A stretch of DNA of 64,000 nt from an uncultured Clostridia bacterium (GTDB lineage: Bacteria; Bacillota; Clostridia; TANB77; CAG-508), in assembly GCA_963931155.1 (NCBI GenBank), contig OZ006978.1:1428692-1492691 (forward strand). The letters run 5' to 3'. Made by a program: the position numbers and the translations under genes. Numbering within the stretch: the first letter of the stretch is position 1; each line of letters begins with the position of its first letter. Of the stretch, positions 6,947 to 62,429 are shown one piece after another. The notes below the pieces were generated by a model. That model was not told the origin of the DNA, ran no database searches, and was given only the letters and a program-made list of their open reading frames with translations.

Positions 6947-7198
6947 ATGATAGAAATAATAAGAAATGTAGTATTAGTTATATATGTGTTAGTTTGCGTT
7001 GTTTTAATAATCTTAGCAACAATACAAGCTAAAGACCAAAGTGGTGCATCTCAAACAATAACAGGAGCTGCTGCAAACAACTTCTATGAGCAAAACAAAG
7101 GTAGAACAAAAGAAGGAAAAATAAAAAGAGCAACAGTTATTTCAGGAGTATTGTTTGTTGTACTTGCTGTAGCACTTTCAATATTAATGGTTATGTAA
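6947..7198 (+). CDS. secG: Preprotein translocase subunit SecG
   Basis: ~80 aa, two TM helices separated by a Gly/Ala-rich loop (QSGASQTITGAAANNF). It lies immediately upstream of rnr, the conserved Firmicutes secG-rnr arrangement. Confidence 0.7.
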   Translation: MIEIIRNVVLVIYVLVCVVLIILATIQAKDQSGASQTITGAAANNFYEQNKGRTKEGKIKRATVISGVLFVVLAVALSILMVM

Positions 7199-7389
7199 TT
7201 AAAATATATTGAATAAATGAGGGGCATATATATCTAATAAAAAGTATATATGTTCTTTTATTTTGTTATAGATAAGTTTTAAACTATATTTTTTAACGGG
7301 AAAATATGATTTAAGTTATCGTATATCCATACGAAAATGTATAGACAAATTACAGCGAAAAAATAAAAAATATAAAGGAAAGAAAGATT

Positions 7390-28590: not shown

Positions 28591-28658
28591 AAAATGCCAT
28601 CGGGGACAGTGAAGTGACCCCATTGGCACAGCAAACAAGAGAAAAGGAGATTAGAAAA

Positions 28659-31600
28659 ATGAGAAAAGCTAAAAACCGTATGGCTCTAGAGAGAGAGAGA
28701 GAGCTACACTATTAAATAACCTACCAGTATTCATACTAGTAGGAATAGTTGTAATGCTAATAATACTAGTAGTAATATATTATATATTTTTAAGATATTC
28801 ACCAGAGCAAATAATAACATATAGTGGGTATGCAATAGAAGGAAAAGAGATGGTGGAGAACTTAAAGAGCAGTGATAAGTCCAAGTTAGCACCATACTTG
28901 GGCTTAATTGCTGTGCAAGAGAATGATTTGATATATAAAAAATTAAATTCATATTACATAGGAGAAGATGATAAAAAAGAAATAGACATAAATTATCCAA
29001 TATACATAAATGAAGGAAATGCACTTTTAAACTTAGGAGAGAACACAAAACTAATAACAGTAAATTATGAAGAAGTAGAAGGTTATCCAGACTTCATGAT
29101 GGCAGATGGAGTAATGTATAATGGAGCTGATATAACAAGAGCAGATGGAAATAAGTATTTATTCCTAAAAAGTGAAGATGAAATATATACAAATGTAGAA
29201 CCGATAACAATAACAACATCAACAGGAAAGTATACAATAAAAGAATATAGTAACATATATTTTGCAGAAGACCATATAGCATATTATGAAATGGAAGGCA
29301 TGCAAGGAAAAAACGAGCAAAATGAAAATAATGAAGAAAATAAACAAAACAATAATTTAAAAGATAGTTATTTAGAATATAAGCAAATAAAACCAATAGA
29401 CCCAGATTCAAAAACAAAGATAAATGGAGAAACAATAACATATAAAACATTACTAGAGAGACTAGAGATTTTGCAAACCGAAGAAAGCAACAATGAAAGT
29501 AATAACAACAAAGAAAATGCAACAAACGAAACAAAAGAAGACGATCTAAAAAATACGACAAACGAAGAGAACACAATTGCAGAAGAAACTACAGGACAAA
29601 ACAGTAATATAAGCAATAATCAAAATACGACAGACACAGAAAATAACAATAGCGACAAGGATGAAGACGAATGGCAAGAAGGAATGTGGGAAAAACCAGA
29701 AGTAAGCTGTACAGACTTTGAAAGTGATGTATATACAATAAGAACAAATCTATCAGTAAGAGATAGAGCAGGAGTTATAACAAGAGGAATAACATTTGAA
29801 ATATATCTAGATGGAAGACTAAATAGAAGAGTACAAGCTAGCCAAGCGGGAACACTAGAAATAACAAACTTACAACCAAGTTCAGAGTATGAGATAAGAG
29901 GAATATTTTATTACAATGATGAAAACGGAGTAGAACAAGAAGAAGAGTTTTACACAGGAAAAGTAACAACAAAATCAATAGATACATTAGGAACATTAGA
30001 CTTTAGCTTCCAAAATGGAAAAATATATTCAAATAAAATAGAATTAATACACTTGAAATTAAACAATGCCTTAAATGAAGAAGTAGTAAGAGGAATATCA
30101 AGGGTACAAGTAGAAATAGGAGATGCAGCATATAGATTAACAAATGCACAAATAGATGAATTAAAAGCAGGAAAAGAAATAACATATCAAACAAGTGAAA
30201 ACTTAACATCAAATAGTAAGATAAAATATGAAATAACAGCATTTGATAGATATGGAAATGAATTAAAAGAGAAGAACAACACAGGAGAAACAATAACATC
30301 AAAACAAGCACCAACATCAAGTATAAGAGTAACAAAACAAGATGTAACAGAAGTAGACTTAGAAATAACACTTACAAATAAAGATAATGTAAGTTTAGAA
30401 AACTATAGATATGAGATAACAAATCAAAGTGGAGATGTAGTAAAACAAGGAACACTAGGCAACAATGGAGTAGCAAGCAATGGAAACAAAGATGAATTAG
30501 CATTTACAGACTTAGACCCTAATGGATATTATCAAATAGTAATCTATGGAGATTATGACTTAGAAAATGGAGAAGGAAAACATCAAAATAGTGAACTAGG
30601 AAGAGGAAGCTTTGTAACAAGACCAATAGCATCACTAGGATATATGCAAGTGAAAATAGACGACAAAGAAGTAACACAAGATAGCATGAATCTTGGAATA
30701 AGTATAGATACAGTACAAACAGATGCAAGATTAGTAGCAATATTAAATAAAGTTGAAGTAGTAATCTATGACCAAGGAAAAAACACAGATAACGGTTCTG
30801 ATGAAAACAATGGACAATCAGAAGAAGAAACACAGGGAACAGAAATAAAGAGAATAACTCTAACAGATGAAGAAGTAGAAAAACTAAAAACATCAGAAGA
30901 AATAGAACTAAATCTAGAACAACTAACATCAAATACAAAATACAGAATAGATGTAATCACAACAGTAAAACAAGGTTCAGTTGAAGAAGTAGTAGAAGAT
31001 AAACAAAACATAGACCAAATAATAACACTAAAAATGCCAGCAGAAGTACAAATAAGAAACCAATTTGTAATAGGAACAATGATAGACCTAGACATGAGAA
31101 TAGAAGATATAGATGGAGCAGATTTAGTAGATAAAGTAAGAATAGAAGTAAGAGATAAAGACAATAAGTTAGTAGACTTAAGTGAAATGGCAACAAACCA
31201 AGATTATGAAAGAAAAACATATGAAGGACTAACACCAAATGAAACGTATACAATACTGGTATATGCACCACAATACAATGAAGGAAGCACAGATGCAACA
31301 TATAAAGCAGATTACTTATTAAAAAAGATAGAAATAGTAACAGAAACAGGAATAAGTGGAAAGTTAGATTTAATAGGACTAGAAAAAACACCAACAGGAA
31401 AGAATTTAATAGATGTAAGTTCTAAAGTAAATTGGTTTGTTTCTTGTTTTAATATAGGAAACTATAATTATCCAATAAGTTATGATGAAAATACAAATAT
31501 ACTTACGTTTTTAGGTACAAATCAATGGAGTTTAAGCTGCATGTATTATGATTTAAGCAAATATATTGGAAAAGAAATAACAGTAAGTTTTAAAGCAAAA

Positions 31601-37974: not shown

Positions 37975-38022
37975 AAGAAGAAGATTAAAAATAAAACAAC
38001 TAAATCTTCTTCTTTTTTAAAG
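37975..38022 (+). terminator. Rho-independent terminator after giant gene 1
   Basis: AAGAAGAAGATT-loop-AATCTTCTTCTT then a T-run. Confidence 0.75.
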
Positions 38023-38033
38023 TCGTTTGAAAA

Positions 38034-38081
38034 ATGTGCAAATTTTCACAAAAGTCCTTTGAAAAATGTGTAAATTTTCAC
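38034..38081 (+). promoter_or_regulatory. Two tandem Crp/Fnr-family-like palindromes (TGTGCAAATTTTCACA and TGTGTAAATTTTCACA) inside a 33-bp tandem direct repeat, upstream of the COG1373 ATPase promoter
   Basis: TGTG-N8-CACA inverted repeats read from the sequence, centred ~32 bp apart. A third partial half-site overlaps the -35. Confidence 0.4.
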
Positions 38082-38089
38082 AAAAGTCG

Positions 38090-38118
38090 TTTGATTTTTG
38101 TGAAAAATTATGATATAA
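38090..38118 (+). promoter_or_regulatory. Promoter of the COG1373 ATPase gene
   Basis: TTGATT, 17 nt, TGaTATAAT. Confidence 0.5.
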
Positions 38119-38163
38119 TACATATAAACAATTAATATAGATAATCATTAGGAGAGTGATGAT

Positions 38164-39471
38164 ATGTATAGAGATAAAATAGAAGAGTTAAAAAAATGGA
38201 AAGAATCATCTAATAGAAAACCTTTAATAATTAGAGGAGCAAGACAAGTAGGAAAAACTTGGCTAATGAAAGAATTTGGAGAAAAATATTATGAAAAATG
38301 TGCATATATAAATTTCGATGATAATTCAAGAATGAATAAACTTTTTGAAGAAAATTTTGACCTAGACAGAATAATACAAGGATTAAAAATAGAATCAGGT
38401 GTAAATATTGAGCCAGAGAACACTTTAATAATTTTTGATGAAATCCAAGAAACACCTAAAGCATTAAAAGCATTAAAGTATTTTTATGAAAATGCTAATG
38501 AATATCATGTAATATCAGCAGGTTCACTTTTAGGAGTTGCAATACATAGTGGAACTTCATTTCCTGTTGGAAAAGTAGATTTTTTAGATTTGATGCCTTT
38601 AAGCTTCTTTGAGTTTTTAAACGCATTAAATGAAAAAGATTTAGTAGAGCTGTTAAAAAGTAATGATTTTAACATGATTGATGTGTTTTCTTCTAAATTG
38701 AAAGATTATCTAAAAATTTATTATTATGTAGGTGGAATGCCAGAAGTTGTTAATTCTTATGTACAAAATAAAGACTTAGTAGAAGTACGAAGAATACAAA
38801 AAACATTACTAGAAGATTATGAACAAGATTTTTCTAAACACGCACCTAATAACATTGTGCCAAGAATTAGGCAGTTATGGAATAATATACCTACACAACT
38901 TGCGAAGGAAAATAAAAAATTTATCTATGGATTAGTAAGAGAGGGTGCAAGAGCAAGAGAATATGAAATAGCGTTATCATGGTTAATAGATTGCGGTCTT
39001 ATATACCAAGTAAATAGAGTAAATAATAGTAAAATACCATTGTCAGCATATCAGGATTTTAGTGCATTTAAATTGTATTTACTTGATGTAGGATTATTAT
39101 CTGCAATGTCAGGAATAGATGCAAAAACTATTTTAGAAGGAAATGAAATATTTAATGAATTTAAAGGAAGTTTAACAGAACAGTATGTTCTATGCCAATT
39201 AAAGCAATGTACAAACCTAGATATTTTCTATTGGTCAGCAGATACAGGAACAGCAGAGGTAGATTTTATAACACAAATAGGAACAAACAATGTTCCTATA
39301 GAAGTAAAAGCAAGTGAAAATTTACAAGCAAAAAGTTTAAAAACATTTGTGCAAAAATATAACACAAAAATTAATGTAAGAACTTCAATGTCTGATTACA
39401 GAAAAGAAGATTGGCTTATAAATATACCTCTATACAGCATAGGCAATATAGAAAAAATAACACAAATGTAA
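38164..39471 (+). CDS. AAA+ ATPase of the COG1373 family (AAA_14 N-domain plus DUF4143-type C-domain)
   Basis: Walker A GARQVGKTW and Walker B IIFDEIQ, about 430 aa, and a C-terminal domain with the CQLKQ..DIFYW..E(V)DFI pattern typical of this family. Confidence 0.8.
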   Translation: MYRDKIEELKKWKESSNRKPLIIRGARQVGKTWLMKEFGEKYYEKCAYINFDDNSRMNKLFEENFDLDRIIQGLKIESGVNIEPENTLIIFDEIQETPKALKALKYFYENANEYHVISAGSLLGVAIHSGTSFPVGKVDFLDLMPLSFFEFLNALNEKDLVELLKSNDFNMIDVFSSKLKDYLKIYYYVGGMPEVVNSYVQNKDLVEVRRIQKTLLEDYEQDFSKHAPNNIVPRIRQLWNNIPTQLAKENKKFIYGLVREGARAREYEIALSWLIDCGLIYQVNRVNNSKIPLSAYQDFSAFKLYLLDVGLLSAMSGIDAKTILEGNEIFNEFKGSLTEQYVLCQLKQCTNLDIFYWSADTGTAEVDFITQIGTNNVPIEVKASENLQAKSLKTFVQKYNTKINVRTSMSDYRKEDWLINIPLYSIGNIEKITQM

Positions 39472-39497: not shown

Positions 39498-39526
39498 CTT
39501 CCAATTTAAAAAAGATATGTTATAAT
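39498..39526 (+). promoter_or_regulatory. Promoter of the copy-2 leader/giant gene
   Basis: TTCCAA-like -35 and extended -10 TGtTATAAT. Confidence 0.45.
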
Positions 39527-39653
39527 GAAAATGTCCTAAAAAGGATAGTATTTTCTTAGACAAGAATGTCTAGTTTTGTACAGATATAAAAGGACAAATG
39601 TTAAAACGCAGACAGCAGAAAAAAATAAAAAAAGGAAAGGAAAACCAGAAAGA

Positions 39654-39869
39654 ATGATAGCACGTGAAAGTCGCATGGCTCTAGAGAGAGAGAGAGAGAG
39701 AGAGAGAGTTACACTATTAGATAACAGATTCTTCGAAGGAAGAATCCTATTAAACGTGCTTAAAACTTTTAATAGAATAGATAAGTTAATTACAGGGATA
39801 GACTGTATCACTGTAAATGTTAGTAAAAGAAACATTTATGGTGATATGGCCTATCCTTTTTGCGTGTGA
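39654..39869 (+). CDS. Leader peptide ORF (71 aa) containing the (AG)13 tract and reading through the downstream terminator hairpin
   Basis: RBS AAAGGAAAGG then an ATG. The peptide is MIARESRMALE(RE)n..RFFEGRILL..TGIDCITV..AYPFCV*. Its stop lies immediately 3' of the terminator T-run. The other two frames stop within 6 codons after the repeat. Confidence 0.5.
   Translation: MIARESRMALERERERERVTLLDNRFFEGRILLNVLKTFNRIDKLITGIDCITVNVSKRNIYGDMAYPFCV
39683..39708 (+). repeat. (AG)13 microsatellite in the copy-2 leader ORF
   Basis: Direct reading of the sequence. Confidence 0.95.
39795..39861 (+). terminator. Strong composite intrinsic terminator/attenuator inside the copy-2 leader, upstream of the giant-gene start codon
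   Basis: GGGATAG..TATCAC..AAATGTT-loop-AACATTT..GTGATA..CTATCC (20 bp of nested stem) followed by TTTTT. Confidence 0.7.
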
Positions 39870-39925
39870 AAAGTAAGTATTTAAAGAAAAATAAGAAATC
39901 AAAAGCAGAAAGGAATTGAGGTATA

Positions 39926-42900
39926 GTGAGAAAAGATAGAATAAATAAAATACAAGTAAATAATAAAAAGAAACGTAAAGAAAAGAGAGGATTGAACAAT
40001 AAAGGAAAAGGCAAAAGAATAAATGTAAAGAATTTACCTACATTTATATTGATAGGACTAATCTTAATGATAATCATAATAGCAATAATCTATTATGTGT
40101 TTTTAAGGTATGCACCAGAACAAATAATAACATATAGTGGATATGCAATAGAGGGACAAGCATTAGCAGAAAACTTAAAAAATAGTGACATATCTAATGT
40201 TAAGCCATACTTGGATTTAGTAGAAGTACAAGAAAATGATTTATTGTATAAAAGATTAAATTCATACTATGTAGGTGAAGATGATAAAAAAGAGATAGAT
40301 ATTAATTATCCTATATACATAAACAATGGAAATGCTCTTTTAAACATAGGAAAGAACACAAAACTAATAACAGTAAATTATGAAGAAGTAGAAGGATATC
40401 CAGAGTTCATGATGACAGATGGAGTAATGTATAATGGAGCAGACTTAACAAGAGCAGATGGAAATAAATATATATTCTTAAAGAGTGAAGATGAAATATA
40501 TACAAATGTAGGAGCAATAAAGATAACAACAGTGTCAAACACATATAACATAAAAGAATTTAGTAATATATACTTTACAGAAAATGCTATTACATATTAT
40601 GAAATGGAAGATGGATATTTACAATATAAGAGAATAGATGATGTAGATAAAAACTCAAAAATAGAAGTAAATGGAGAAAGTTTAACATATAAAACATTCC
40701 TAGAAAGATTAGGAATAATAGATACAGAGGAAAACAACAGCAATGATAAAAAAGATAATGAAACCGAAGAAGCAAACAAGATAAATGAAAATACAGTAGA
40801 AGAACCAGAGCAAGTAAATGAAGAAAACTCAATAGATGAAAACAATAATACTAATGATTCCACAGAAAATAAGCAAGAAGAAAATCAAGAGCCAGAATGG
40901 CAAGAAGGAATGTGGGAAAAACCAGAAGTAAGTTGTACAGACTTTGAAGGAGAAGTATACACAATAAGAACAAATTTATCAGTAAGAGATAGAGCAGGAG
41001 TTATAACAAGAGGAATAACATTTGAAATATATTTAGATGGAAGATTAAACAGAAGAGTACAAGCTAGCCAAGCGGGAATACTAGAAATAACAAACTTAAG
41101 ACCAAGTTCAGAATATGAGATAAGAGGAATATTCTATTACAATGATAAAAACGGAGTAGAACAAGAAGAAGAGTTCTACACAGGAAAAGTAACAACAAAA
41201 TCAATAGATACATTAGGAACATTAGACTTTAGCTTCCAAAATGGAAAGATATATTCAAATAAAATAGAGCTAATACATCTAAAACTAAATAACAACATAG
41301 ATGAAGAAGTAATAAAAGGAATATCAAGGTTGCAAATAGAGATAGGAGATATAGCATATAGATTAAGTAATAACCAAGTAAATGATATAAAAGCAGGAAA
41401 AGAAATAACATACCAAACAAGTGAAAGTCTAACATCAAATAGTAGGATAAAATACAAAATAACAGCATTTGATAGATTTGGAAACGAATTAAAGGAGAAG
41501 AACAATGAAGGAGAAACAATAACCTCAAAACAAATGCCAACAGCAAGTATAAGACCAACAAAACAGGATGTAACAGAAATAGAGATAGAAGTAACACTAA
41601 ACAATAAAGATAATGTAAAACTAGAAAACTATAGATATGAAATAACAAACCAAAGCGGAGAAGTAGTAAAGAGTGGAGCATTAGGAAAAAACGATAATGG
41701 CACAGATGGTGGAAACTCCAATGAAGGAGAAAATATAAAAGATGGTACAAAGGAAACATTAAAATTTAACGACTTAGACCCAAATGGATATTATCAAATA
41801 GTAATCTATGGAGACTATGACCTGGAAGATGGAACAGGAATAAAAGAAAATGCAGAATTAGGAAGAGGAAGTTTTGTAACAAGACCGATAGCATCATTAG
41901 GATATATGCAAGTAAAAATAGATGATAAAGAAATAACACAAAATAGTATGAACCTTGGAATAAGCATAGATGAAAACCAAACAGATGCAAGACTTTTAGC
42001 AATACTAGATAAAGTAGAAGTAGTTATATATGACCAAGGTAAAAATAGCGACCAAATCAATCAAGGACAAGAAGAACAAAGCAAAGAAACCGAAGTACAA
42101 CGCATCACCTTCACTAAGGAACAAGTTCAGCAACTAAAAGTAGCAGAAGAGGTAGAACAAGACTTAGAGAGGCTAAATTCAAACACAATATACAGAATAG
42201 ATGTAATAACAACAGTAAAACAAGGAACAGTAGAAGAAATAGTAGAAGATAAACAAAACATAGAACAATTAATAACTTTAAAAATGCCAGCAGAAGTACA
42301 AATAAAGAACCAATTTGTAATAGGTACAATGATAGATCTAGACATGAGGATAGAGGATCTAGACAATGCAGTATTAACAAACAAAGTAAGAATAGAGGTA
42401 AGAGATAAAGACAATAAATTAATAGACTTAAGCGAAATGCAAACAAATGCAGACTACGAAAGAAAAACATATGAAGATTTAACACCTAATGAAGAATATA
42501 GAATAATAGTATATGCACCACAATACAACATAGGAAGTACAGATGAAACATATGAAGCAGATTACATCTTAAAAGAAATAAAGATAGTAACAGAAACAGG
42601 AATAAGTGGAAAGCTAGACTTAATAGGACTAGAAAAAGCACCAACAGGAAAGAACCTAGTAGATGTAAGCTCAAAAGTAAATTGGTTTGAAAGATGTTTC
42701 GATTTATCATATTCTTATGGTATAAATTATGACGAAAACACAAAAATACTCAAATTAGGAGAAAAACTAAGTGACAGTATGAAAAAGAAAGACTATTACG
42801 ATTTAAGCGAATATTTAGGACAAGAAGTAACAATAAGTTTTAAGGCAAGAACTGAAAATAATGCAAAATTGGAAGTGATAGAGAAACTTAATAATGACTT

Positions 42901-45900
42901 TTATAATACGGATTGGAAATCTTATTATAAAATAAATGATTTAAGCAAAGAGTGGCAAGAATACCAATACACATTAACTTTGAGCCAAACAGGGTATTTA
43001 GGATTTTATGTGTTAGAAGGTTATGCAACAGTAGAAATACAAAATTTACAAGTAGAACTTGGTAATAGAAAAACAGATTATGAAGAATTTAAATATGATT
43101 ACAATGCAAATATAGCAGTAACTGTAAGTGATGAAAGAGACGAAATAGCAACAAATGATTACTACATAAGGATATACAAAAACAATGAACAAATCCAAGA
43201 ACTACGTTATGAAGAAATAGGAGAAGACAACAAAGTAGAAAATGCTATAAAAACATACAATATAGAACCAAATGCAAATTACAAAATAGAGCTTTTAGTA
43301 AAAATAGGAGGGAGATACTATGAGCTAGATTCACAGGAATTTACAACAGAAGGAGCAAAAGAAATAAAAGGAATATTTAACTTAAATGACTATTTAAAAA
43401 TACAACCATTCGGCTCATATATTATTTTAAATGATTTAGATATGCAAAATTCTAGTAGTAAATATATTTTTGGAGCGTTTGTGGAAGAAGGTGGTTTTTC
43501 TGGAACCATAGACTATAATGGTAAAAAAATACATATTAGTTCTAATGAATTTTTTGGTCTGTTTAGAAGAATTGAAAAGAATGGAACAATTAAAAATGTT
43601 GTATTTGATATAAATTTTGATAATCCTTCAGATATATCAGAATTTCCTAGTTTAGTTGCCTATAATCATGGAAAAATGGAAAATATACAAATTAATATGT
43701 GGCAATCATCGAATGGTACAGTAGGTTTATATAAAATATTATGTGATTATAATTATGGAGTAGTTGACAATTTTATTATAAATGTAAAAAATGATATAAA
43801 TGTTTTGGGCAGTAGCCAAGTAGGTTTAATACTTAGAAATAATTTTGGAACGGTGAAAAATGGATATATTTATGGGCATGATATTAATGTAACAGAAACA
43901 AATAACGGGTATAAATATTTGGGGATAGTGTCTAACTATGCAAATGCTACAATATCTAATGTTTTTACACTTACAAATATTAATTATTTAAATTCTTTAA
44001 GTGATAATAATACTGCAAACATAGTATACAATAATTACGAGAATGCAACAGTACAAAATGTATATTCTGTTGGTGTTGGAAAGAATACAACAGATTTAAC
44101 ACACGGCCCTAATGTACATGTTAAAGGTTCAAAAAAAGTATATAACAATTATTATTTTGCCGATGAAATATTTACAAGTGAATTAGAAACAAAAGGAAAT
44201 ATGTTATCTTTATGGGATTCAACATTTCAAAACCAAATAATAAATCAAGATGGAGCTTTTATAGTAGATGAACTAGTAAATAAAGGATTTTACCCACAAT
44301 TAAATATGCCAGAATGTATGCCAGCACAAGAGTATATAGAATTACCAGAAGTAAAAGACGCAGACTTACCAGACATATTATCAACTAAAGTATTAGAGCA
44401 AGGCACAAATACAGTAAAAGTAGAATTTAGTGTAAATAATCCATCATCAGAAACAATAAGTAATATACAAATAGAAAATATAGATGTTGATATACTTTCA
44501 CAAGAGTATAATAATGGAAAAAGTACAGTAATAGCAGAATTAAAAAATCCAATAATTTGCGTATCAAGTTACAATGTACTAAGTATAAGTACAAAAGGAG
44601 CATATGGAAGTACATATAAAAGAGAATATGAAAAAGGAGAAAGAGTAATAAATGTAGATCTATATAAGGAAATATGGAATGTAACCGATTGGAAAGCAAT
44701 TGCAGATTCACCAACAGAGAACTATATGTTAATGGAGGATTTGAACTTTATAAATGAAGGAAATTCCATCCACATTTCAGAGATAAGAGGAATATTAAAT
44801 GGAAACGGACATACTGTTTCTAACATACATTTAAATAATGGAGAACCATTGTTTTACATGGTATATGGCACATTAAAGGATATGTATATAAAAAATTATA
44901 TACAAGAAGGAAAGATAACACATGGGGGTATTATAGCCGGATTAGCTTCTGGAAGAATAGATGGAGTACATGTTACAAATGCAGAGGTGAATTCTCAGGA
45001 AAATACTGGTACAGTAATGATCGGAGCTTTGATTGGGGATTGTTGGAATTCTTCAGTTACTAATTGCTCTGTAAACAATTCTTCAGTAAATGTTAATATG
45101 GAAACAGGAACTCTTTACTTGGGTGGGGCTATAGGTCAAGTTCAAAATACAACAATAGATTGTTGTTACACATATAATATTTCTATGAATGATTCTAATG
45201 TTACAAATGCAGGAATTGGAGGTATAATTGGCACAGGTTCATATAACAAAATTACTAATTGCTATTCAGGAGGAAAGATTGTATCTAAAAATATTAATGT
45301 AGGAGGAATATTGGGACTATCAGGTGCAGAAGTAGAAATAGAAAATTGCTATTCAACAGTTAATATATCTACAAATAATATAAATCTAGGAGGAATAATT
45401 GGAAGAAGTACGGCGGTAGATACAGAAGGAATTGTAAACAATTTAAGTATAGGAAAAATATATACAACATCTGGAATAGAAAGCATAAATAGAATAATAG
45501 GAAGTACCACTAATACAACAGATAATAATTATGCATATGAAAAACAATTATTAAATGGATATGCAAGTGAGGAAGAAAAAGGTGCTACTTTATTAACTAA
45601 AGAAGAAGTGCTAAATTTGAATTTGGGAGAAAGCTTTAATTATGATAAAAAGGGGGAAGGAATATTACCAAAGTTATATAATACAGAAGGAACTGAGCTA
45701 TTACCAAATCAACAAGATATATTCTTAGATGATAGTATGGAAGTTGGAAATGTAAATCTAGAAGTTGAAAGCATTGAAACAGCAAAACCAAATACAACTG
45801 AAGCAGAAATAACAGTAAAAATAAAGAATCCAGAAGAAATAGAAATAACAGATTTAGAAATAGAAGATATGGAAGTTGCAGAAGTAACAAGAAACGTAAC

Positions 45901-46639
45901 TCAAAATGGAATAACGAGTATAACAGTAAGAGCAACTCCAATAAGATATTTTGATAATTATAAATTAACCGCAATAAAATATAAGATGGATAGCATAGAA
46001 GAACAATCAAAAGAGATAGAACTAGAAATACCAGTACAATTTTATAAAGAAATATACACATACGAAGATTGGCAGTCTATAGAAGAAGGAATATATCAAA
46101 ATTATAGGTTGATGGCAGATATAGACTTTACAGGAAAGCCAAGTATAAAAAATAATATAAAAGTGAATAGGCTAGAAGCAGAAAATAAAATATATACATT
46201 AAAAAATATAAAACTAGAATTTAGTGATGCAAATACAGGATTAATAAACAATGTAAAGACAAGAATAAAAAATATAGGATTTGAAAACATAATATTAACT
46301 AATATAGCCTCTACAGGCAATTATTTTGGAATTATATCTACAAATGGTGGAATTATTGATAATGTAAAATTTAGCAATATAACAATTGAAGCACAAAAAA
46401 TGAACTATGTTGGAATAGTTGGAAGTTTTGTGTTCGGAGAAGTAACAAATGTAGAAATGGAAAACATTAACGTAAATGGTAATTCTTATATTGGTGGTTT
46501 AGCCGGAGAATGTAACTATAATGTTAATAATGTAAAGGCAAAAGATATTCATGTTACAGCTGTAGATAACTATGCTGGAGGAATTATGGGAATAACTACT
46601 GGTCCAACTCGGAAATCCAATTTATCAAGAAAATATTAA
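39926..46639 (+). CDS. Giant GLUG-repeat surface protein, paralog 2, N-terminal 2237-aa fragment. It has its own GTG start, so it is uncoupled from the leader repeat. It ends at a +1 frameshift.
   Basis: It is homologous throughout to paralogs 1 and 3. The reading frame switches from frame 2 to frame 0 within 46596-46620 (AAA/AAAA homopolymer). Confidence 0.8.
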   Translation: MRKDRINKIQVNNKKKRKEKRGLNNKGKGKRINVKNLPTFILIGLILMIIIIAIIYYVFLRYAPEQIITYSGYAIEGQALAENLKNSDISNVKPYLDLVEVQENDLLYKRLNSYYVGEDDKKEIDINYPIYINNGNALLNIGKNTKLITVNYEEVEGYPEFMMTDGVMYNGADLTRADGNKYIFLKSEDEIYTNVGAIKITTVSNTYNIKEFSNIYFTENAITYYEMEDGYLQYKRIDDVDKNSKIEVNGESLTYKTFLERLGIIDTEENNSNDKKDNETEEANKINENTVEEPEQVNEENSIDENNNTNDSTENKQEENQEPEWQEGMWEKPEVSCTDFEGEVYTIRTNLSVRDRAGVITRGITFEIYLDGRLNRRVQASQAGILEITNLRPSSEYEIRGIFYYNDKNGVEQEEEFYTGKVTTKSIDTLGTLDFSFQNGKIYSNKIELIHLKLNNNIDEEVIKGISRLQIEIGDIAYRLSNNQVNDIKAGKEITYQTSESLTSNSRIKYKITAFDRFGNELKEKNNEGETITSKQMPTASIRPTKQDVTEIEIEVTLNNKDNVKLENYRYEITNQSGEVVKSGALGKNDNGTDGGNSNEGENIKDGTKETLKFNDLDPNGYYQIVIYGDYDLEDGTGIKENAELGRGSFVTRPIASLGYMQVKIDDKEITQNSMNLGISIDENQTDARLLAILDKVEVVIYDQGKNSDQINQGQEEQSKETEVQRITFTKEQVQQLKVAEEVEQDLERLNSNTIYRIDVITTVKQGTVEEIVEDKQNIEQLITLKMPAEVQIKNQFVIGTMIDLDMRIEDLDNAVLTNKVRIEVRDKDNKLIDLSEMQTNADYERKTYEDLTPNEEYRIIVYAPQYNIGSTDETYEADYILKEIKIVTETGISGKLDLIGLEKAPTGKNLVDVSSKVNWFERCFDLSYSYGINYDENTKILKLGEKLSDSMKKKDYYDLSEYLGQEVTISFKARTENNAKLEVIEKLNNDFYNTDWKSYYKINDLSKEWQEYQYTLTLSQTGYLGFYVLEGYATVEIQNLQVELGNRKTDYEEFKYDYNANIAVTVSDERDEIATNDYYIRIYKNNEQIQELRYEEIGEDNKVENAIKTYNIEPNANYKIELLVKIGGRYYELDSQEFTTEGAKEIKGIFNLNDYLKIQPFGSYIILNDLDMQNSSSKYIFGAFVEEGGFSGTIDYNGKKIHISSNEFFGLFRRIEKNGTIKNVVFDINFDNPSDISEFPSLVAYNHGKMENIQINMWQSSNGTVGLYKILCDYNYGVVDNFIINVKNDINVLGSSQVGLILRNNFGTVKNGYIYGHDINVTETNNGYKYLGIVSNYANATISNVFTLTNINYLNSLSDNNTANIVYNNYENATVQNVYSVGVGKNTTDLTHGPNVHVKGSKKVYNNYYFADEIFTSELETKGNMLSLWDSTFQNQIINQDGAFIVDELVNKGFYPQLNMPECMPAQEYIELPEVKDADLPDILSTKVLEQGTNTVKVEFSVNNPSSETISNIQIENIDVDILSQEYNNGKSTVIAELKNPIICVSSYNVLSISTKGAYGSTYKREYEKGERVINVDLYKEIWNVTDWKAIADSPTENYMLMEDLNFINEGNSIHISEIRGILNGNGHTVSNIHLNNGEPLFYMVYGTLKDMYIKNYIQEGKITHGGIIAGLASGRIDGVHVTNAEVNSQENTGTVMIGALIGDCWNSSVTNCSVNNSSVNVNMETGTLYLGGAIGQVQNTTIDCCYTYNISMNDSNVTNAGIGGIIGTGSYNKITNCYSGGKIVSKNINVGGILGLSGAEVEIENCYSTVNISTNNINLGGIIGRSTAVDTEGIVNNLSIGKIYTTSGIESINRIIGSTTNTTDNNYAYEKQLLNGYASEEEKGATLLTKEEVLNLNLGESFNYDKKGEGILPKLYNTEGTELLPNQQDIFLDDSMEVGNVNLEVESIETAKPNTTEAEITVKIKNPEEIEITDLEIEDMEVAEVTRNVTQNGITSITVRATPIRYFDNYKLTAIKYKMDSIEEQSKEIELEIPVQFYKEIYTYEDWQSIEEGIYQNYRLMADIDFTGKPSIKNNIKVNRLEAENKIYTLKNIKLEFSDANTGLINNVKTRIKNIGFENIILTNIASTGNYFGIISTNGGIIDNVKFSNITIEAQKMNYVGIVGSFVFGEVTNVEMENINVNGNSYIGGLAGECNYNVNNVKAKDIHVTAVDNYAGGIMGITTGPTRKSNLSRKY

Positions 46640-49358
46640 TATAACTAATTCAGAAGTAACAGGAAAATCCTATATAGGAGGAATAGTTGGAGACTGTTAT
46701 GAAACAGTTTTAGAATATAGTAATATTAAGGGTAGTTCAATAACAGGAACTAGTTATGTAGGCGGAATGTGTGGAAGAAAAAGATTGCCAAATTTAAATC
46801 ATTGCTTAGATAATATAGTAGATGATTGTAACATTTATGGAAGTCAGGGCTATGTTGGTGGAATAATGGGCTACAGTGATTGTTATGAAAACTCCGCAAT
46901 TGTAAAAAATACAAATATAATTGGAACAAGTGTTGATTGTGATCAAGTAGGAGGAATTGCAGGAGGTACGACTTATTTATTATTTTACTGCAATGTTAAT
47001 AATTGCACAATAAGATCATTAGGAAACAAGGTTGGCGGTATAGTTGGAGGATATTATGGTGCTAATGAAGCTCATGCACCTCAGGAATGTTTTGTTGGTC
47101 AGACAAATATAGAAGGAAATGCGATGGTTGGAGGTTTAATGGGAGTATTTACACAAGGGCCACTAAATGGAAGTTTGGTAAACGCTAACATTAAAGCAAT
47201 TTCACACTCGGCTGGAGGTTTAATAGGAATGTTAGATAATTCTAACATGACTACGATTTCATATAGAAGTAAGATTTCAAATTGTGGTATAGCATCTTCA
47301 AATATATCTTCAAAAGCTAATGTGGGTGGTATTATAGGAAATGTATCAAAAACTTTAGCAAAGGAAGGAGAATATTACAAAAACATATATGTTGACGCAA
47401 CATTACAATCTGAAGATAAAGATAGTGTATCTATGGGAATTGGTAATTCAAAAATCAGTAACGAAAATATAATAAATACTTATATTTATAAGTATAGTAA
47501 AATAAATGATGAATATATAAATGAAATAATAGATACATATAAACAAGAACAGTATGTAAATGGAGATGATTTAAGATTAGAACAAACATATAGAAGTACA
47601 TTCGGATGGAATGGACATTATTCATACATACCTTTACAAAGTGATTCTTATCCAACACCTAAAAATGTAAAAAATGCAACAGACGTGAAATTGCCAACAG
47701 ACCCAGAAATTACAGAAATAAGTTCATTGAATGATACAGAAGATAAAAACAATGCTACAACACAAAATAATATAACAGCACAAAACAATATAGAAACTGA
47801 AAATAAAGTAACACTACCAAATTGTACAGTATATCCAGTTTCTGTTAATGAAATAAACGTAGATTTTAGTGGAGTAGTAAATAATTATAATGAGAAAGTA
47901 CATACTAAAATTGCCAATGAACAACAAGCAGGACAAAGTTCAAAGTATCAAAACTCATTAACAAAATTCGCATACTTCATCAATGGACAAGAACTAGAAA
48001 CAGTAGAATTAAGCAATAGCACAAATCAAACATATACGTTCAAATATAATTTTAAGGACACAATAGAAATAAAACTAAGCAATGGACAAGAAGAAAAGAT
48101 AATCACAATAACACCAGACGATGTAAGAAGTGAAGCAAGTTTAGTTGGAGGAAACAATGCATACTTACTTGGAACAAATCTATACATTAATGGAAAAATA
48201 CAACAAGGAGAATATGTAAATGTATATGAAGGATATGCTTTAAGAAAAGATGGCACAGTTATGAACATTGTTACAGGCGAATTTGTGGAAAATACAGGTG
48301 CAGATTCAAGTAATAATGTAAATTCTTCGCAAACTTATCTAGAACAAGATAAAGAAACATATTTAGAACAAACACCAAAGCCACTTCATACATACGATTA
48401 CAAAGGAAACACAATAGAAGTATATGGAACATACAGCAAAATAAACGGAAATATAAAACTGCAAGTATACAATGTGAGAAGCGGAAAACTATCAGCACTT
48501 TCAAATTCACTAGATATGAAAATTGGAAACAGCATAACAGATAATTACAACAATAAAGAATACCAAACAATACTAAATACTTCAGGAGAATTAGTAGACT
48601 TAAAAGAAATGCTAAAATATCCAGATAATTTCTTAACAAGAAATATAAAACAAATAGAACAAAATACAGATGAAGAAAAAACAGAAGTAATGGTGCTATA
48701 TAACACAGGCAAAGTAATAGTATTCAATTATGTAAGTGGAGAAGTAGTATATGAGAATAACGAGAAATCAGATGAAGGACTAACAGATTATATTGCAGGA
48801 AGTATAGAGAATATATGGAATGACTACGAAGAAAAACAGCAAGAATATGCAAAAAGTAAAGAGCTAGAGCAAAAGCTGGCAGAATTACCTGTAGAAAAAG
48901 CCATTGAGCGAGTAAACGGAAATGCTCAAAACAACAATAACCAAAGTGAAAATGAAAATAATTTAAGTAGCAATGGCTCAACTTCAAATGTTGCAAATAA
49001 TTCAAACAACGGAAATACAACTAGTTCAAGCGATAAAAACAATACAGAAAGTTCAACAAATTCATCAAGTACAAACTCAAACAACGACTATATAACCGTA
49101 TACAATGCAGAAACAGGAGAATACGAAGTATATAGTGAAGACGAAATACTAAACGAAATCGATGAAACACCAGTATCAGAAACAGAAAAAATAACACAAA
49201 ACGGACTAGAAGGAATATATGGGTATAATGCAAAAGAAGAAACAAAACCACAAACAAATGGAGCAATAATAGTGATATCAACAATTGTTGTGGTTATGTT
49301 AGCATTAGTTATTTTAAGAAAGATTGTGGTGAAAAAGAATACAAAAAACAATGTATAA
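46596..49358 (+). CDS. Giant surface protein paralog 2, C-terminal fragment (continues in frame 0 from 46596; the track ORF starts at 46767)
   Basis: The translation upstream of 46767 (..IYQENINITNSEVTGKSYIGGIVGD..) is still GLUG-repeat sequence. The C-terminal region and TM anchor are conserved with paralogs 1 and 3. Confidence 0.8.
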   Translation, partial: LLVQLGNPIYQENINITNSEVTGKSYIGGIVGDCYETVLEYSNIKGSSITGTSYVGGMCGRKRLPNLNHCLDNIVDDCNIYGSQGYVGGIMGYSDCYENSAIVKNTNIIGTSVDCDQVGGIAGGTTYLLFYCNVNNCTIRSLGNKVGGIVGGYYGANEAHAPQECFVGQTNIEGNAMVGGLMGVFTQGPLNGSLVNANIKAISHSAGGLIGMLDNSNMTTISYRSKISNCGIASSNISSKANVGGIIGNVSKTLAKEGEYYKNIYVDATLQSEDKDSVSMGIGNSKISNENIINTYIYKYSKINDEYINEIIDTYKQEQYVNGDDLRLEQTYRSTFGWNGHYSYIPLQSDSYPTPKNVKNATDVKLPTDPEITEISSLNDTEDKNNATTQNNITAQNNIETENKVTLPNCTVYPVSVNEINVDFSGVVNNYNEKVHTKIANEQQAGQSSKYQNSLTKFAYFINGQELETVELSNSTNQTYTFKYNFKDTIEIKLSNGQEEKIITITPDDVRSEASLVGGNNAYLLGTNLYINGKIQQGEYVNVYEGYALRKDGTVMNIVTGEFVENTGADSSNNVNSSQTYLEQDKETYLEQTPKPLHTYDYKGNTIEVYGTYSKINGNIKLQVYNVRSGKLSALSNSLDMKIGNSITDNYNNKEYQTILNTSGELVDLKEMLKYPDNFLTRNIKQIEQNTDEEKTEVMVLYNTGKVIVFNYVSGEVVYENNEKSDEGLTDYIAGSIENIWNDYEEKQQEYAKSKELEQKLAELPVEKAIERVNGNAQNNNNQSENENNLSSNGSTSNVANNSNNGNTTSSSDKNNTESSTNSSSTNSNNDYITVYNAETGEYEVYSEDEILNEIDETPVSETEKITQNGLEGIYGYNAKEETKPQTNGAIIVISTIVVVMLALVILRKIVVKKNTKNNV

Positions 49359-49476: not shown

Positions 49477-49495
49477 ATAAGTAGAGGTGAAAACT

Positions 49496-50701
49496 ATGAT
49501 ACAAAGAGATATCTATTTGAAAAAACTTATAGATTTTAGAGATAAAGATTTAATTAAAATTGTAACAGGAATTAGAAGATGCGGTAAATCTACTTTATTT
49601 GATATATATATTAACTATTTAAAAGAACAAGGAGTACAGGAAGATCAAATAATAAAACTAAATCTAGAAAGTCAAGAATATAATTTTGAAAGTTATGTTG
49701 AACTATATAACTATATAAGTAAAAGATTAGTTAAAAGCAAAAAAAATTATGTTTTTATAGATGAAGTTCAACGTGTAGATGAATTTCAAAAGACTATAGA
49801 TAGTTTATATATAGATAAAAATATTGATTTATATATAACAGGTTCAAATGCATATCTTTTATCTGGAGAATTAGCAACTCTAATTTCAGGCAGATATGTA
49901 GAAATAAAAATGTTACCATTATCTTTCAAAGAATATATGTCAGCCTTTAACGAAAATATAGATAAACAAGAAAAATTATTAGATTATTTAAAATACGGTT
50001 CATTGCCACTAACAGTAGAATTATTTAAAACAAATCCAGATATAATCGAAAGTTATATAGATGGAGTGTTTTCAACTGTTATATATAAGGATGTAATGCA
50101 AAGAAATAATATAAATAATAAAATGTTATTAGAAAGTATTATAAAATACATTTTTAGTAACATAGGAAGTCAAATAACTACTAAAAAAATAAGTGACACA
50201 TTAACAAGTATGAATAGAGCTACAAGTAATCATACAGTAGAAAATTATATTTCAGCATTAATAGATGCATTTTTGTTATATAAAGTTGATAGATTTGACG
50301 CCAAAGGAAAAAATGTCCTTGCAAGTGGGTACAAGTATTACATTGCAGATATAGGATTTAGAGCACATATGCTTGGAAAAAAAGCTGGACAAGATATGGG
50401 ACATATATTGGAAAATATAGTTTATTTGGAATTGTTAAGAAGAGGATATAAAGTATATACGGGAAAAATAGAGAATTTAGAAATAGATTTTGTAGCTGAA
50501 AATAAAAATGGGCTAGAATATTATCAGGTATCATTAACTACGAGAGATGAGAAAACATTAGAAAGAGAATTAAAGCCATTGCAAAAAACGGGAGACTTTT
50601 ATCCTAAATATTTGTTAACAATGGAAAGAGATTTAGAAGCAGACTATAATGGAATAAGGAAAATAAATATAATAGATTGGTTGCTTGAAGAAAAAATCTA
50701 A
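49496..50701 (+). CDS. AAA+ ATPase of the COG1373 family (second copy, divergent from 38164-39471)
   Basis: Walker A GIRRCGKST and Walker B VFIDEVQ, and the same domain layout. Confidence 0.8.
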   Translation: MIQRDIYLKKLIDFRDKDLIKIVTGIRRCGKSTLFDIYINYLKEQGVQEDQIIKLNLESQEYNFESYVELYNYISKRLVKSKKNYVFIDEVQRVDEFQKTIDSLYIDKNIDLYITGSNAYLLSGELATLISGRYVEIKMLPLSFKEYMSAFNENIDKQEKLLDYLKYGSLPLTVELFKTNPDIIESYIDGVFSTVIYKDVMQRNNINNKMLLESIIKYIFSNIGSQITTKKISDTLTSMNRATSNHTVENYISALIDAFLLYKVDRFDAKGKNVLASGYKYYIADIGFRAHMLGKKAGQDMGHILENIVYLELLRRGYKVYTGKIENLEIDFVAENKNGLEYYQVSLTTRDEKTLERELKPLQKTGDFYPKYLLTMERDLEADYNGIRKINIIDWLLEEKI

Positions 50702-50761: not shown

Positions 50762-50933
50762 AAAAATGCCATTGGGTTCACTTCACAGACTCCTTGGCAC
50801 AAGAAACAAAAAACAATAATTTTTTAACAAAACAGAACTAAAGTATGAATTTTAGTATTTGAGAAAAAATGATTGCAAAGATAAAGTAAAAAAACTTGAA
50901 AAACAAAAAACAAATGAAAGGAAAGAGTAAAAA

Positions 50934-60592
<9,659 letters not shown>

Positions 60593-60656: not shown

Positions 60657-61019
60657 GTGGTAAAATTGCCAAATATTCCAAAAAAAATCAATAGTATTAT
60701 AGAAGAATTTATTAAAGGTGTAAAAGAAATTCTTGGAGAAAGAATGAAAAAAATTATTCTTTATGGTTCGTATGCAAGAGGAGATTATAATAAAAATTCT
60801 GATATAGATATAATGATTTTAACAGATTTAAATGACGATGAAATAATAAAATATAGGGATAAAATATGGGAATTAGCATATAATATTGAATTTGATAACA
60901 ATTTTGATATTGCAATATCACCATTAATAAAGAATATAGATAAATTTCAATATTTGTTAGAAGCATTACCATTTTATATAAATATTCAAAAAGAAGGGGT
61001 GGTGCTAAGTGAGTCCTAA
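60657..61019 (+). CDS. Minimal nucleotidyltransferase (MNT), the antitoxin-type partner of HEPN
   Basis: GSYARGDYNKNSDIDI nucleotidyltransferase motif, 120 aa, overlapping the downstream HEPN gene. Confidence 0.8.
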   Translation: MVKLPNIPKKINSIIEEFIKGVKEILGERMKKIILYGSYARGDYNKNSDIDIMILTDLNDDEIIKYRDKIWELAYNIEFDNNFDIAISPLIKNIDKFQYLLEALPFYINIQKEGVVLSES

Positions 61020-61410
61020 AATTTCAAAAGAATTATCTAAACATAGATTAGAACAAGCAAAAGAAGATTTAAAAGCAAGTAAAGTATTGTATGATGCAAA
61101 ATTATATAAATCAGCTAATAATAGAGCATATTATTCTATATTTCATAGTATGAAAGCAGTTTTGGTATTAGAACCAATAGATTTCAAAAGACACAAAGAT
61201 GTAATAGCATATTTCAATAAAAATTATATACATACAGGAATATTTCCTAAAGATATGGGAAGAAGAATTTCAAATGCAAGTAGAATAAGAGAAGATAGTG
61301 ATTATGATGATGAATTTGTAGTAAATCCAGAAGATACACTAGCTCAAATAAAGACCGCTGAAGAAATTATAAAGTTAGCAGAAAACTATATTGATAACAA
61401 AGAAATATAA
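61009..61410 (+). CDS. HEPN domain protein (toxin-type partner)
   Basis: Rx6H motif (RAYYSIFH), ~130 aa, helical. Gene order MNT then HEPN with an 11-bp overlap. Confidence 0.7.
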   Translation: MSPKISKELSKHRLEQAKEDLKASKVLYDAKLYKSANNRAYYSIFHSMKAVLVLEPIDFKRHKDVIAYFNKNYIHTGIFPKDMGRRISNASRIREDSDYDDEFVVNPEDTLAQIKTAEEIIKLAENYIDNKEI

Positions 61411-61455: not shown

Positions 61456-61770
61456 AAAAGAAAATATTCTTAAAAAATGCCAGATATATATGAAAATGTA
61501 AAAAATAAATGAATAAGTTTTTACATTTTCTTGACATAGTACAAAAAATACAGTTTTACATGGATTGTTTAGAAGGAAAATTATTTAATTTTAGGGACAA
61601 TGTAACAGGATTGGAAGCAGATTCAATATTAGAGTTTAGTAATGGAGAATATGCCATAGTACAAATGTGCCATTGGAGACAGACCCTTTTGGCATTCGTT
61701 TATTCATGATAGAATATATTAAAAAAATTATATAAAAAATTAAAAAATAATGCTAAAATTAAAAAAGTTA

Positions 61771-61813: not shown

Positions 61814-62044
61814 ATGAGCAAGCTTGAAAGCCTTGGCGCTGTACACACACACACACACACACACACAATATGTTCTTACCAAAAGGAATGTTGGAAACAA
61901 AGTACAAGAATAGATAGAAGATTCTTCGAAGGAAGAATCCTATTAAGCATGCTTACAATAAATAATTATATAGATAACAAAGGTAAAACAGGGATAGACT
62001 GTATTACTGTAGGTGTTCGAAAAAGAGCACTTATGGCAATATAG
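61814..62044 (+). CDS. Orphan leader-peptide ORF containing (AC)12, encoding (HT)n and reading into its own terminator
   Basis: ATG with an AG-rich RBS. The peptide is MSKLESLGAV(HT)n..RRFFEGRILL..GKTGIDCITV..*. It has the same hairpin and terminator modules as the copy-2 and copy-4 leaders. Confidence 0.45.
   Translation: MSKLESLGAVHTHTHTHTICSYQKECWKQSTRIDRRFFEGRILLSMLTINNYIDNKGKTGIDCITVGVRKRALMAI
61843..61867 (+). repeat. (AC)12 microsatellite
   Basis: Direct reading of the sequence. Confidence 0.95.
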
Positions 62045-62057
62045 CCTATCCTTTTTT
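61991..62057 (+). terminator. Leader-associated intrinsic terminator (GGGATAG...CCTATCC then T6)
   Basis: The same outer stem as in the copy-2 and copy-4 leaders, with a different inner helix. Confidence 0.6.

Positions 62058-62207: not shown

Positions 62208-62429
<222 letters not shown>

Follow-up and report, generated by a model that had tools for sequence, protein, structure and literature searches.

The closest described counterpart of the element studied here is found in Streptococcus gallolyticus, where GCAGA repeats in a leader-peptide open reading frame (ORF) switch the pil1 and pil3 operons (Danne et al. 2014, PMC3894217). In this system transcription is raised by long leaders, which have their stop codon inside a premature terminator or downstream of it, via ‘ribosome-induced destabilization’ of this terminator, and the evidence comes from start-codon, 3-STOP and terminator-deletion mutants (PMC3894217). 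We analyzed a 64,000-nt stretch of DNA from an uncultured Clostridia bacterium (contig OZ006978.1, positions 1,428,692 to 1,492,691 of the forward strand; hereafter the window, with all positions counted from its first letter) which carries four paralogous giant genes, each with an AG microsatellite ahead of it as found by Tandem Repeats Finder (TRF). Ahead of giant gene 2 the repeat lies in a short leader ORF followed by two hairpins, and from its sequence we consider this module to be probably a phase-variable, translation-dependent transcription attenuator, i.e. a random on/off switch of a giant surface-protein gene. A first-pass annotation of the window had been aware of no described microsatellite-controlled attenuator of this kind, a claim to novelty which is refuted by the work on S. 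gallolyticus (PMC3894217). In the literature that we searched, including papers citing the 2014 mechanism, repeat-controlled leader-peptide attenuation was described for the S. gallolyticus pili only.

Four features of the pil1/pil3 system that can be tested by sequence were observed for the present module as well: (i) a simple sequence repeat (SSR) in a short leader ORF with its own ribosome-binding site (RBS), apart from the structural gene; (ii) a stem–loop terminator, here as a prediction, between the repeat and the structural gene; (iii) a repeat phase that sets the leader stop either well upstream of the hairpin (39 nt there, 70–74 nt here) or within or past it; and (iv) a repeat number that differs among isolates or populations. 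Because all four are found, the mechanism proposed here is not new. The regulated genes encode surface structures in both cases. New are the dinucleotide repeats (AG or AC compared to GCAGA), the one-in-three ON logic (a single phase out of three is long here, whereas the long leaders of pil1 are its out-of-frame variants), an extra conserved hairpin upstream of the terminator, tandem modules that may stand twice in series before one gene, and the spread through a multi-copy family (16 DNA copies and 39 peptide clusters). Furthermore, the two systems share no sequence homology, the long hairpin comprises 27 bp with −31 to −33 kcal/mol here compared to −18.7 and −28.2 kcal/mol there, and our module was evidently inserted into giant genes at their 5′ coding end, while paralogues of these genes keep in-ORF phase variation. 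The S. gallolyticus switch is proven by mutants, whereas the module described here is predicted.

In Mycoplasma mycoides, AG repeats of the same kind follow closely on the start codon within the ORF of the mod gene, and one in three phases is ON (PMC3498834). Giant genes 1 and 3 use exactly this in-ORF form of phase variation. In copies 2 and 4, however, the structural gene is not read in the frame of the repeat: a stop codon (39869 and 62429, respectively), an untranslated gap of 56 nt and a separate RBS with a GTG start intervene, so that the repeat cannot act by frameshifting the protein. Classical in-ORF phase variation was therefore rejected for these two copies.

In the pyrBI and pyrE attenuators of Escherichia coli the leader or upstream ORF reaches an intrinsic terminator, and a ribosome close behind RNA polymerase blocks the hairpin without an antiterminator hairpin being needed; in K-12 the rph-1 frameshift, by which translation ends early, lowers pyrE expression. 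These attenuators differ from our module in that they sense UTP via polymerase pausing, are physiological and not stochastic, and contain no hypermutable repeat. The Clostridioides difficile cwpV gene resembles it in that a large surface protein is controlled stochastically by an intrinsic terminator in the 5′ leader that either forms or does not, but this control is driven by recombinase-mediated DNA inversion and involves neither repeat slippage nor a need for leader translation.

The leader module ahead of giant gene 2

The leader ORF of 71 amino acids (aa) spans positions 39654–39869 in its present (AG)13 phase (all module features given here lie on the + strand) and encodes the peptide MIARESRMALERERERERVTLLDNRFFEGRILLNVLKTFNRIDKLITGIDCITVNVSKRNIYGDMAYPFCV*, which is identical to a peptide on record as P0031; an exact look-up of this peptide gave no contig. 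The hypermutable switch itself, the (AG)13 microsatellite, was located by TRF at 39683–39708. By alignment with copies 1 and 3 we observed that the leader begins with a region homologous to that in which giant genes 1 and 3 truly start: the leader ATG (39654) aligns with the ATG opening their 3081- and 3218-aa ORFs, and the RBS and the first codons are homologous as well. As all three elements match a real gene start, the leader start is very likely used as a working translation start. Just 5′ of the first hairpin we found a dual-frame stop block, TTAGATAA (39715–39724), which contains a TAG ending at 39720 and a TAA ending at 39724. TRF and translation thus bear out what the first-pass annotation had said of this part, namely that the tract of 13 units lies in a separate 71-aa leader ORF and that the other two phases end in ..ESYTIR* or ..RELHY*. 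In our translations the former stop lies at 39724 (12 units) and the latter at 39720 (14 units).

Two hairpins follow the stop block. Hairpin 1 (39727–39746) has an 8-bp stem and a variable tetraloop (GAAG, GGAA, GCAA, GAAA or ACAG across copies), with a folding energy of −10 kcal/mol (z −3.7). The second, long hairpin has 27 bp (39794–39858) and carries a run of five T (39857–39861); together they form a predicted intrinsic terminator (39794–39861). Its folding energy of −31.5 kcal/mol corresponds to z −8.0 compared to shuffled sequence, and for the fold of the complete module the value is z = −7.2. Due to several G·U pairs the long hairpin is 7–11 kcal/mol more stable in the + strand RNA than in the − strand, and is therefore specific to the sense RNA. 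The evidence for hairpins and promoter comes from folding, covariation and pattern search, since a consensus promoter/terminator scan missed the long hairpin as well as the extended −10 promoter. Folding and z-scores agree with the earlier statement that the leader crosses a small hairpin and both arms of a very strong terminator. Its distances needed some correction: the leader stop, placed 3 nt after the T-run, is a TGA at 39867–39869 which 5 nt separate from the last T, and the short-phase stops, placed ∼130 nt before the terminator, do lie ∼135 nt before the T-run but 70–74 nt before the first paired base of the hairpin.

We searched for known structures and for an alternative fold in the leader region. 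No Rfam match reached the gathering score in the entire window, and a permissive threshold likewise gave nothing for the leader region; the sole Rfam match in 39500–40000 is a chance microRNA match (E = 0.64). When RNAalifold was applied to an alignment ending before the 3′ arm, no conserved alternative pairing with the 5′ arm was predicted. Because of this lack of a conserved antiterminator fold, the ribosome itself must be the antiterminator if the hairpin is relieved at all, in the manner of pyrBI-type attenuation. A stalling attenuator of the trp/his type was considered and rejected, as there is neither an antiterminator hairpin nor, in the leaders, a run of codons for a single amino acid beyond the repeat itself.

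Upstream of the leader we found by pattern match a predicted extended −10 promoter element, TATGTTATAAT (39516–39526), which would serve both the leader and giant gene 2. The TGnTATAAT block, with TTCCAATTT upstream of it, is found again ahead of gene 1, gene 3 and a further module of AC type (28579, 50751 and 61769, respectively), and it also precedes the modules of related loci. Downstream of the terminator, positions 39905–39928 contain the Shine–Dalgarno (SD) region GCAGAAAGGA..GAGG and the GTG start of giant gene 2. The block ATCAAAAGCAGAAAGGA...GTG is conserved in all related loci, and gene calls on related contigs begin at the equivalent GTG. This agrees with the earlier annotation, which had given the gene its own GTG at 39926: it has a separate RBS and follows the leader stop after a gap of 56 nt. 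Translational coupling between leader and giant gene was rejected, since this gap ranges from 56 to ∼150 nt among the copies and is variable in length. The annotation was also right that DNA had been inserted relative to copies 1 and 3, yet the extra DNA amounts to ∼310 bp (39726 to ∼40036) and not to ∼230 bp, and it supplies the GTG together with a new RBS and an N-terminal tail rich in Lys, Arg and Asn.

Between the two elements we observed a complementarity: the 3′ tail of the terminator, UCCUUUUUGC (39854–39863), can pair with the SD sequence GCAGAAAGGA of giant gene 2 (39905–39914) over 10 bp with one G·U pair, and the minimum-free-energy fold of the entire leader uses this pairing. It could, according to this modeled fold, add a translational layer in read-through transcripts.

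Giant gene 2 itself is a 2237-aa ORF (39926–46639) with a basic N-terminal tail followed by a transmembrane (TM) anchor. The ORF ends with a TAA, and the protein, with GLUG-like ‘YIGGIVG’ repeats, continues in another frame as ORF 46767–49358, which bears the C-terminal TM anchor. At the split (46600–46770) no obvious repeat was found; either the gene is a pseudogene due to a frameshift or the assembly is wrong here.

Conservation of structure and frame in 16 module copies

In order to see what is conserved in the module, we collected 16 distinct copies, some with AG and some with AC repeats, from the window, from one uncultured Clostridia metagenome-assembled genome (MAG) and from metagenome contigs. 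Relatives were obtained by three routes: from homologues of the giant-protein N-terminus and their contigs; from a scan of representative genomes, which gave six copies in one ‘uncultured Clostridia’ MAG and one chance match; and from a profile search with leader peptides, which gave 39 clusters in public assemblies, together with their contigs. A match in a Bdellovibrionales MAG (L011) was rejected as a chance match and carries no module, and L014, a noisy assembly of the window locus, was left out. A scan of the Joint Genome Institute (JGI) metagenomes with the module pattern gave no matches, and all 48 loci found there with GGCTCT(AG)7 were unrelated microsatellites; the lineage is absent from this collection. 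A scan of viral contigs gave no matches either, and the module is therefore not a phage element.

We then compared the reading frames between repeat and terminator. In all 16 copies a single phase gives an ORF of 62–102 aa that ends in the 3′ arm (..MAI*, TAG) or just past the T-run (..AYPFCV*, TGA), while the other two phases end directly ahead of hairpin 1, 12–18 nt (AG type) or 45–52 nt (AC type) after the repeat. Between repeat and 3′ arm the long frame contains no stop codon in any copy; the other frames contain 97 and 82. For the given composition a frame as long as this would be open by chance with P ∼0.01 per copy, and since it is open in 16 of 16 diverged copies, chance is excluded. 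All indels in the linker between the two hairpins are of 3 or 6 nt. The sole 1-nt indel is located in the loop of the long hairpin, and it accounts for the two classes of C-terminus (..MAI* and ..YGDMAYPFCV*).

These observations bear on the possibility that the module is a relic, i.e. that an inserted terminator element severed the repeat from the gene, that the gene now has its own promoter with constitutive expression and that the leader is without function. It is true that the module looks like an insertion of ∼310 bp into the 5′ coding region as compared to genes 1 and 3, and that weak −10-like hexamers are present in the spacers of two related loci. However, a functionless leader is hard to reconcile with a long frame that stays open in all 16 diverged copies next to 5–6 stops per copy in each other frame, with linker indels in multiples of 3, and with repeats that remain long (10–17 units) and polymorphic. 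Moreover, there is no −10-like element between terminator and GTG in the window. Each copy found by nhmmer or pattern search either follows a leader with a repeat or is located where the contig ends and the upstream DNA is cut off, and none was found elsewhere in the genome. We therefore regard a relic as very unlikely.

Both hairpins are predicted by RNAalifold from the alignment. Over the 35 pairs, 98.2% of the alignment cells are standard pairs, compared to 44–55% when the 3′ partners are slid. Hairpin 1 is paired in 99.2% of cells, with two of its eight pairs varying on both sides, and the long hairpin in 97.9%, with three pairs varying on both sides; compensatory double changes thus occur in five pairs, for example from A–U to G–C in six copies. 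Directly after the G+C-rich base of the long stem a run of 5–7 T is present in all 16 copies.

This conserved T-run is relevant for another explanation of the long hairpin, namely that it acts post-transcriptionally as an RNase III site, as a stability element or through the pairing of its tail with the SD sequence, in which case translation of the leader would affect processing or translation in place of termination, with phase variation of the switch retained. A duplex of 27 bp has sufficient length for RNase III, and an SSR-linked hairpin in the 5′ untranslated region (UTR) of Haemophilus influenzae hmw is cut by this enzyme (PMC12721329); in addition, the fold of the entire leader joins the terminator tail to the SD region. 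A processing site would not need a T-run, though, and the 10-bp tail–SD pairing is much weaker than the hairpin with its −31.5 kcal/mol. Furthermore, the AC-type module before gene 4 has both hairpin and T-run but is not followed by the SD of a giant gene. For these reasons a purely post-transcriptional role appears unlikely to us, with transcription attenuation as the preferred reading. Polarity by Rho, in which early stops expose the RNA to Rho and the hairpin is incidental, deserves still less weight. Premature stops commonly cause polarity in bacteria with active Rho. The window, however, is A+T-rich (28% G+C, with C making up 11% of the + strand), and the untranslated stretch is A-rich and C-poor and would be a poor loading site for Rho; a canonical hairpin with T-run is conserved. 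We judge a Rho-based explanation to be highly improbable.

Finally, we asked what is kept in the long frame. The ratio of non-synonymous to synonymous variation (pN/pS) was 0.81 for the long frame and 0.70 and 0.59 for the other frames. As the long-frame value is no lower than those of the two control frames, it is translatability that is kept and not the peptide. The tetraloop of hairpin 1 varies freely and the encoded residues vary along with it. That the long-phase product of 62–102 aa is a functional phase-variable small protein might be suggested by the 39 peptide clusters called in public assemblies and by an alignment that looks conserved. But the pN/pS values speak against this, residues at loop positions vary freely while stems are kept, the 1-nt loop indel yields two unrelated C-termini, and the leader region has no Rfam match; we consider such a protein extremely improbable. 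Taken together, the alignments indicate that selection maintains two RNA hairpins, the T-run and translatability across them, but no protein.

Repeat variation and the proposed switch

Next, we examined the other repeat-bearing copies in the window. The repeats of genes 1, 3 and 4 are (AG)8 at 28688–28703, (AG)17 at 50963–50996 and (AG)16 at 62237–62268. In genes 1 and 3 the tract lies within the giant ORF: the ATG at 28659 opens the 3081-aa frame with 7 units and the ATG at 50934 opens the 3218-aa frame with 16 units. With the 8 and 17 units of this assembly neither gene is in frame (28659–28719 and 50934–51012; 3k+1 units required). Copy 4 has the layout of copy 2 and is also in the long phase, with a 73-aa leader ORF (62208–62429, (AG)16), hairpin 1 at 62287–62306, the terminator at 62354–62421 and the GTG at 62486. 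It had been described as identical to copy 2, which holds for layout and phase, although the sequences are only near-identical. A promoter within this module (TAAACA-16-TAGAAT, 62311–62338) was considered and rejected, since it is not conserved in other copies. For the assembled genome the sequence predicts that genes 1 and 3 are OFF, whereas the attenuators ahead of genes 2 and 4 are predicted to be ON.

By pattern search we found a third module (61814–62057), missing from the first-pass annotation, in tandem upstream of the copy-4 module. Its AC-type leader ORF of 76 aa (61814–62044) contains (AC)12A at 61843–61867, is in the long phase and encodes a peptide identical to P0049. Its hairpin 1 lies at 61920–61939 and its terminator, a hairpin of −33.0 kcal/mol with T6, at 61990–62057; the TAG stop of the leader falls inside the 3′ arm of its own terminator. 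An nhmmer search with the module alignment gave only these three module copies in the window. The leaders are homologous but carry distinct motifs, GCTCT(AG)n encoding (ER)n at 62237–62268 and GCTGT(AC)n encoding (HT)n at 61843–61867, so the repeat motif was swapped within one leader family; the AC-type leader has an extra in-frame segment of 33 nt ahead of the dual-stop block. Tandem AC+AG or AC+AC modules were observed at four loci (gene 4 of the window, L008, L016/L017 and L018–L020).

The number of repeat units was found to vary. One related locus with identical flanks in five assemblies has 12, 13, 13, 11 and 11 AG units, and comparison of two further loci, both in the MAG, with peptides called in other samples gave 13 versus 12 units (P0026) and 12 versus 14 units (P0027). 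L069, which is cut before the repeat, and the P0040 matches, which were selected on the peptide, are uninformative in this respect. Across copies the repeats stay long, with 10–17 units, and both long and short phases occur: a short phase prevails among the copies that were found independently of ORF calls, and the long phase is seen in each of the three copies of the window. At the level of sequence, the anatomy of the module, the conservation of its structure, the open frame and the repeat polymorphism are thus established.

We propose the following course for the switch. Transcription would start at the extended −10 promoter near 39521, and ribosomes would initiate at the leader ATG (39654) and translate through (AG)n. 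With 3k+1 units (now 13) the frame would remain open for 48 further codons, across hairpin 1 and both terminator arms, with the stop 5 nt beyond the T-run. A ribosome close behind RNA polymerase would block the hairpin, and read-through into the giant gene, translated from its own RBS and GTG, would be the ON state. With 3k or 3k+2 units, in contrast, the ribosome would leave at the dual-frame stop block, 70–74 nt before the hairpin, which could then fold, so that transcription would end at the T-run (OFF). Slipped-strand changes of the repeat would flip cells between ON and OFF. As no −10-like element lies between terminator and GTG, giant gene 2 would depend on read-through from the promoter at 39516–39526. 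Termination at the T-run and its relief by translation are what we infer from this arrangement. Hairpin 1 would then be a polymerase pause, a synchronising hairpin that lets the ribosome catch up, and the unusually long stem may widen the window for interference by the ribosome. Where two modules follow each other, as the AC-type and the AG-type one do ahead of gene 4, both tracts should need to be in phase. The earlier claim that repeat length toggles read-through in the 3k+1 phase only is thus well supported as far as sequence comparison goes, by the open frame in 16 of 16 copies, by the retained hairpins and T-run, by a peptide that is not under selection, by the lack of a −10-like element between terminator and GTG and by the repeat polymorphism, whereas its claim to novelty fell.

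Several points weigh against this proposal. Termination at 39861 in this uncultured organism is a prediction, and a simple consensus terminator scan did not call the long hairpin, which it missed because of a 1-nt internal loop in the stem. With 27 bp the stem also far exceeds the length that is common for terminators. Ribosomes tend to be left behind by RNA polymerase in Bacillus-type Firmicutes, and antitermination by a ribosome would be weakened by this if there is no pause. As assembled here, gene 2 is broken by a frameshift, so that the copy-2 module may control a defective gene. Finally, the copies are paralogues that may exchange sequence, and the 16 sequences are therefore not fully independent evidence.

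Going beyond the single module, there is a more tentative reading, which we regard as possible but rather doubtful: a self-contained regulatory cassette would have turned in-ORF into transcriptional phase variation and then spread among the giant-gene paralogues, hairpin 1 would be a polymerase pause by which coupling of ribosome and polymerase is enforced in a Firmicute, and the AC+AG tandem would work as a two-bit stochastic AND gate.

Neighbourhood and biological meaning

The vicinity of the giant genes shows further recurrent elements. Directly after the promoter we observed a conserved stem–loop, GCCATYGG...CCWTTGGC, with a GGGACAG motif (28597–28632, 50767–50800 and 61667–61700), which is also present in the 5′ UTRs of L005 and L009. 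Its loops in copies 1 and 3 are approximate reverse complements of each other, and at 9375–9462 there is a 36-bp tandem repeat made up of related GGGACAG units. After each giant gene small defence- or toxin–antitoxin-like genes are found (38164–39471, 49487–50701 and 60666–61410), namely AAA_14/DUF4143 ATPases (twice) and an NTP_transf_2/HEPN pair; related loci (L001, L016) have AbiEi/AbiEii or DUF4258 at this position. A 32-bp tandem repeat (38019–38094, 2.4 copies, 93% identical) lies just upstream of the extended −10 promoter of AAA_14/DUF4143 (38109–38119). On the related contig L015 a sortase gene (7135–7953) adjoins the giant genes; the giant proteins of the window end in a TM anchor and lack an LPXTG motif in the vicinity of their C-terminus. 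Spore-germination proteins are also encoded in the window, and the contig on which the leader peptide is recorded has 1.75 Mb; both fit a spore-forming Clostridia lineage with a small genome.

The presence of an unrelated, multi-copy version of the pil-type switch among uncultured, spore-forming Clostridia suggests a recurrent evolutionary solution and not a one-off. For annotation it implies that surveys which score repeats only in ORFs or promoters would misread such loci as orphan small ORFs or ‘intergenic’ repeats. With both designs in one genome, in-ORF repeats in genes 1 and 3 and attenuators in genes 2 and 4, the organism allows the two to be compared in a natural setting. The attenuator would plausibly be of advantage because a cell in the OFF state is spared the transcription of a gene of 7–10 kb. 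Tandem modules would permit combinatorial switching, and if the AND gate proposed for them is real, with slippage rates possibly differing between AC and AG, it would give a lower ON frequency (∼1 in 9) or graded expression of the giant surface protein.

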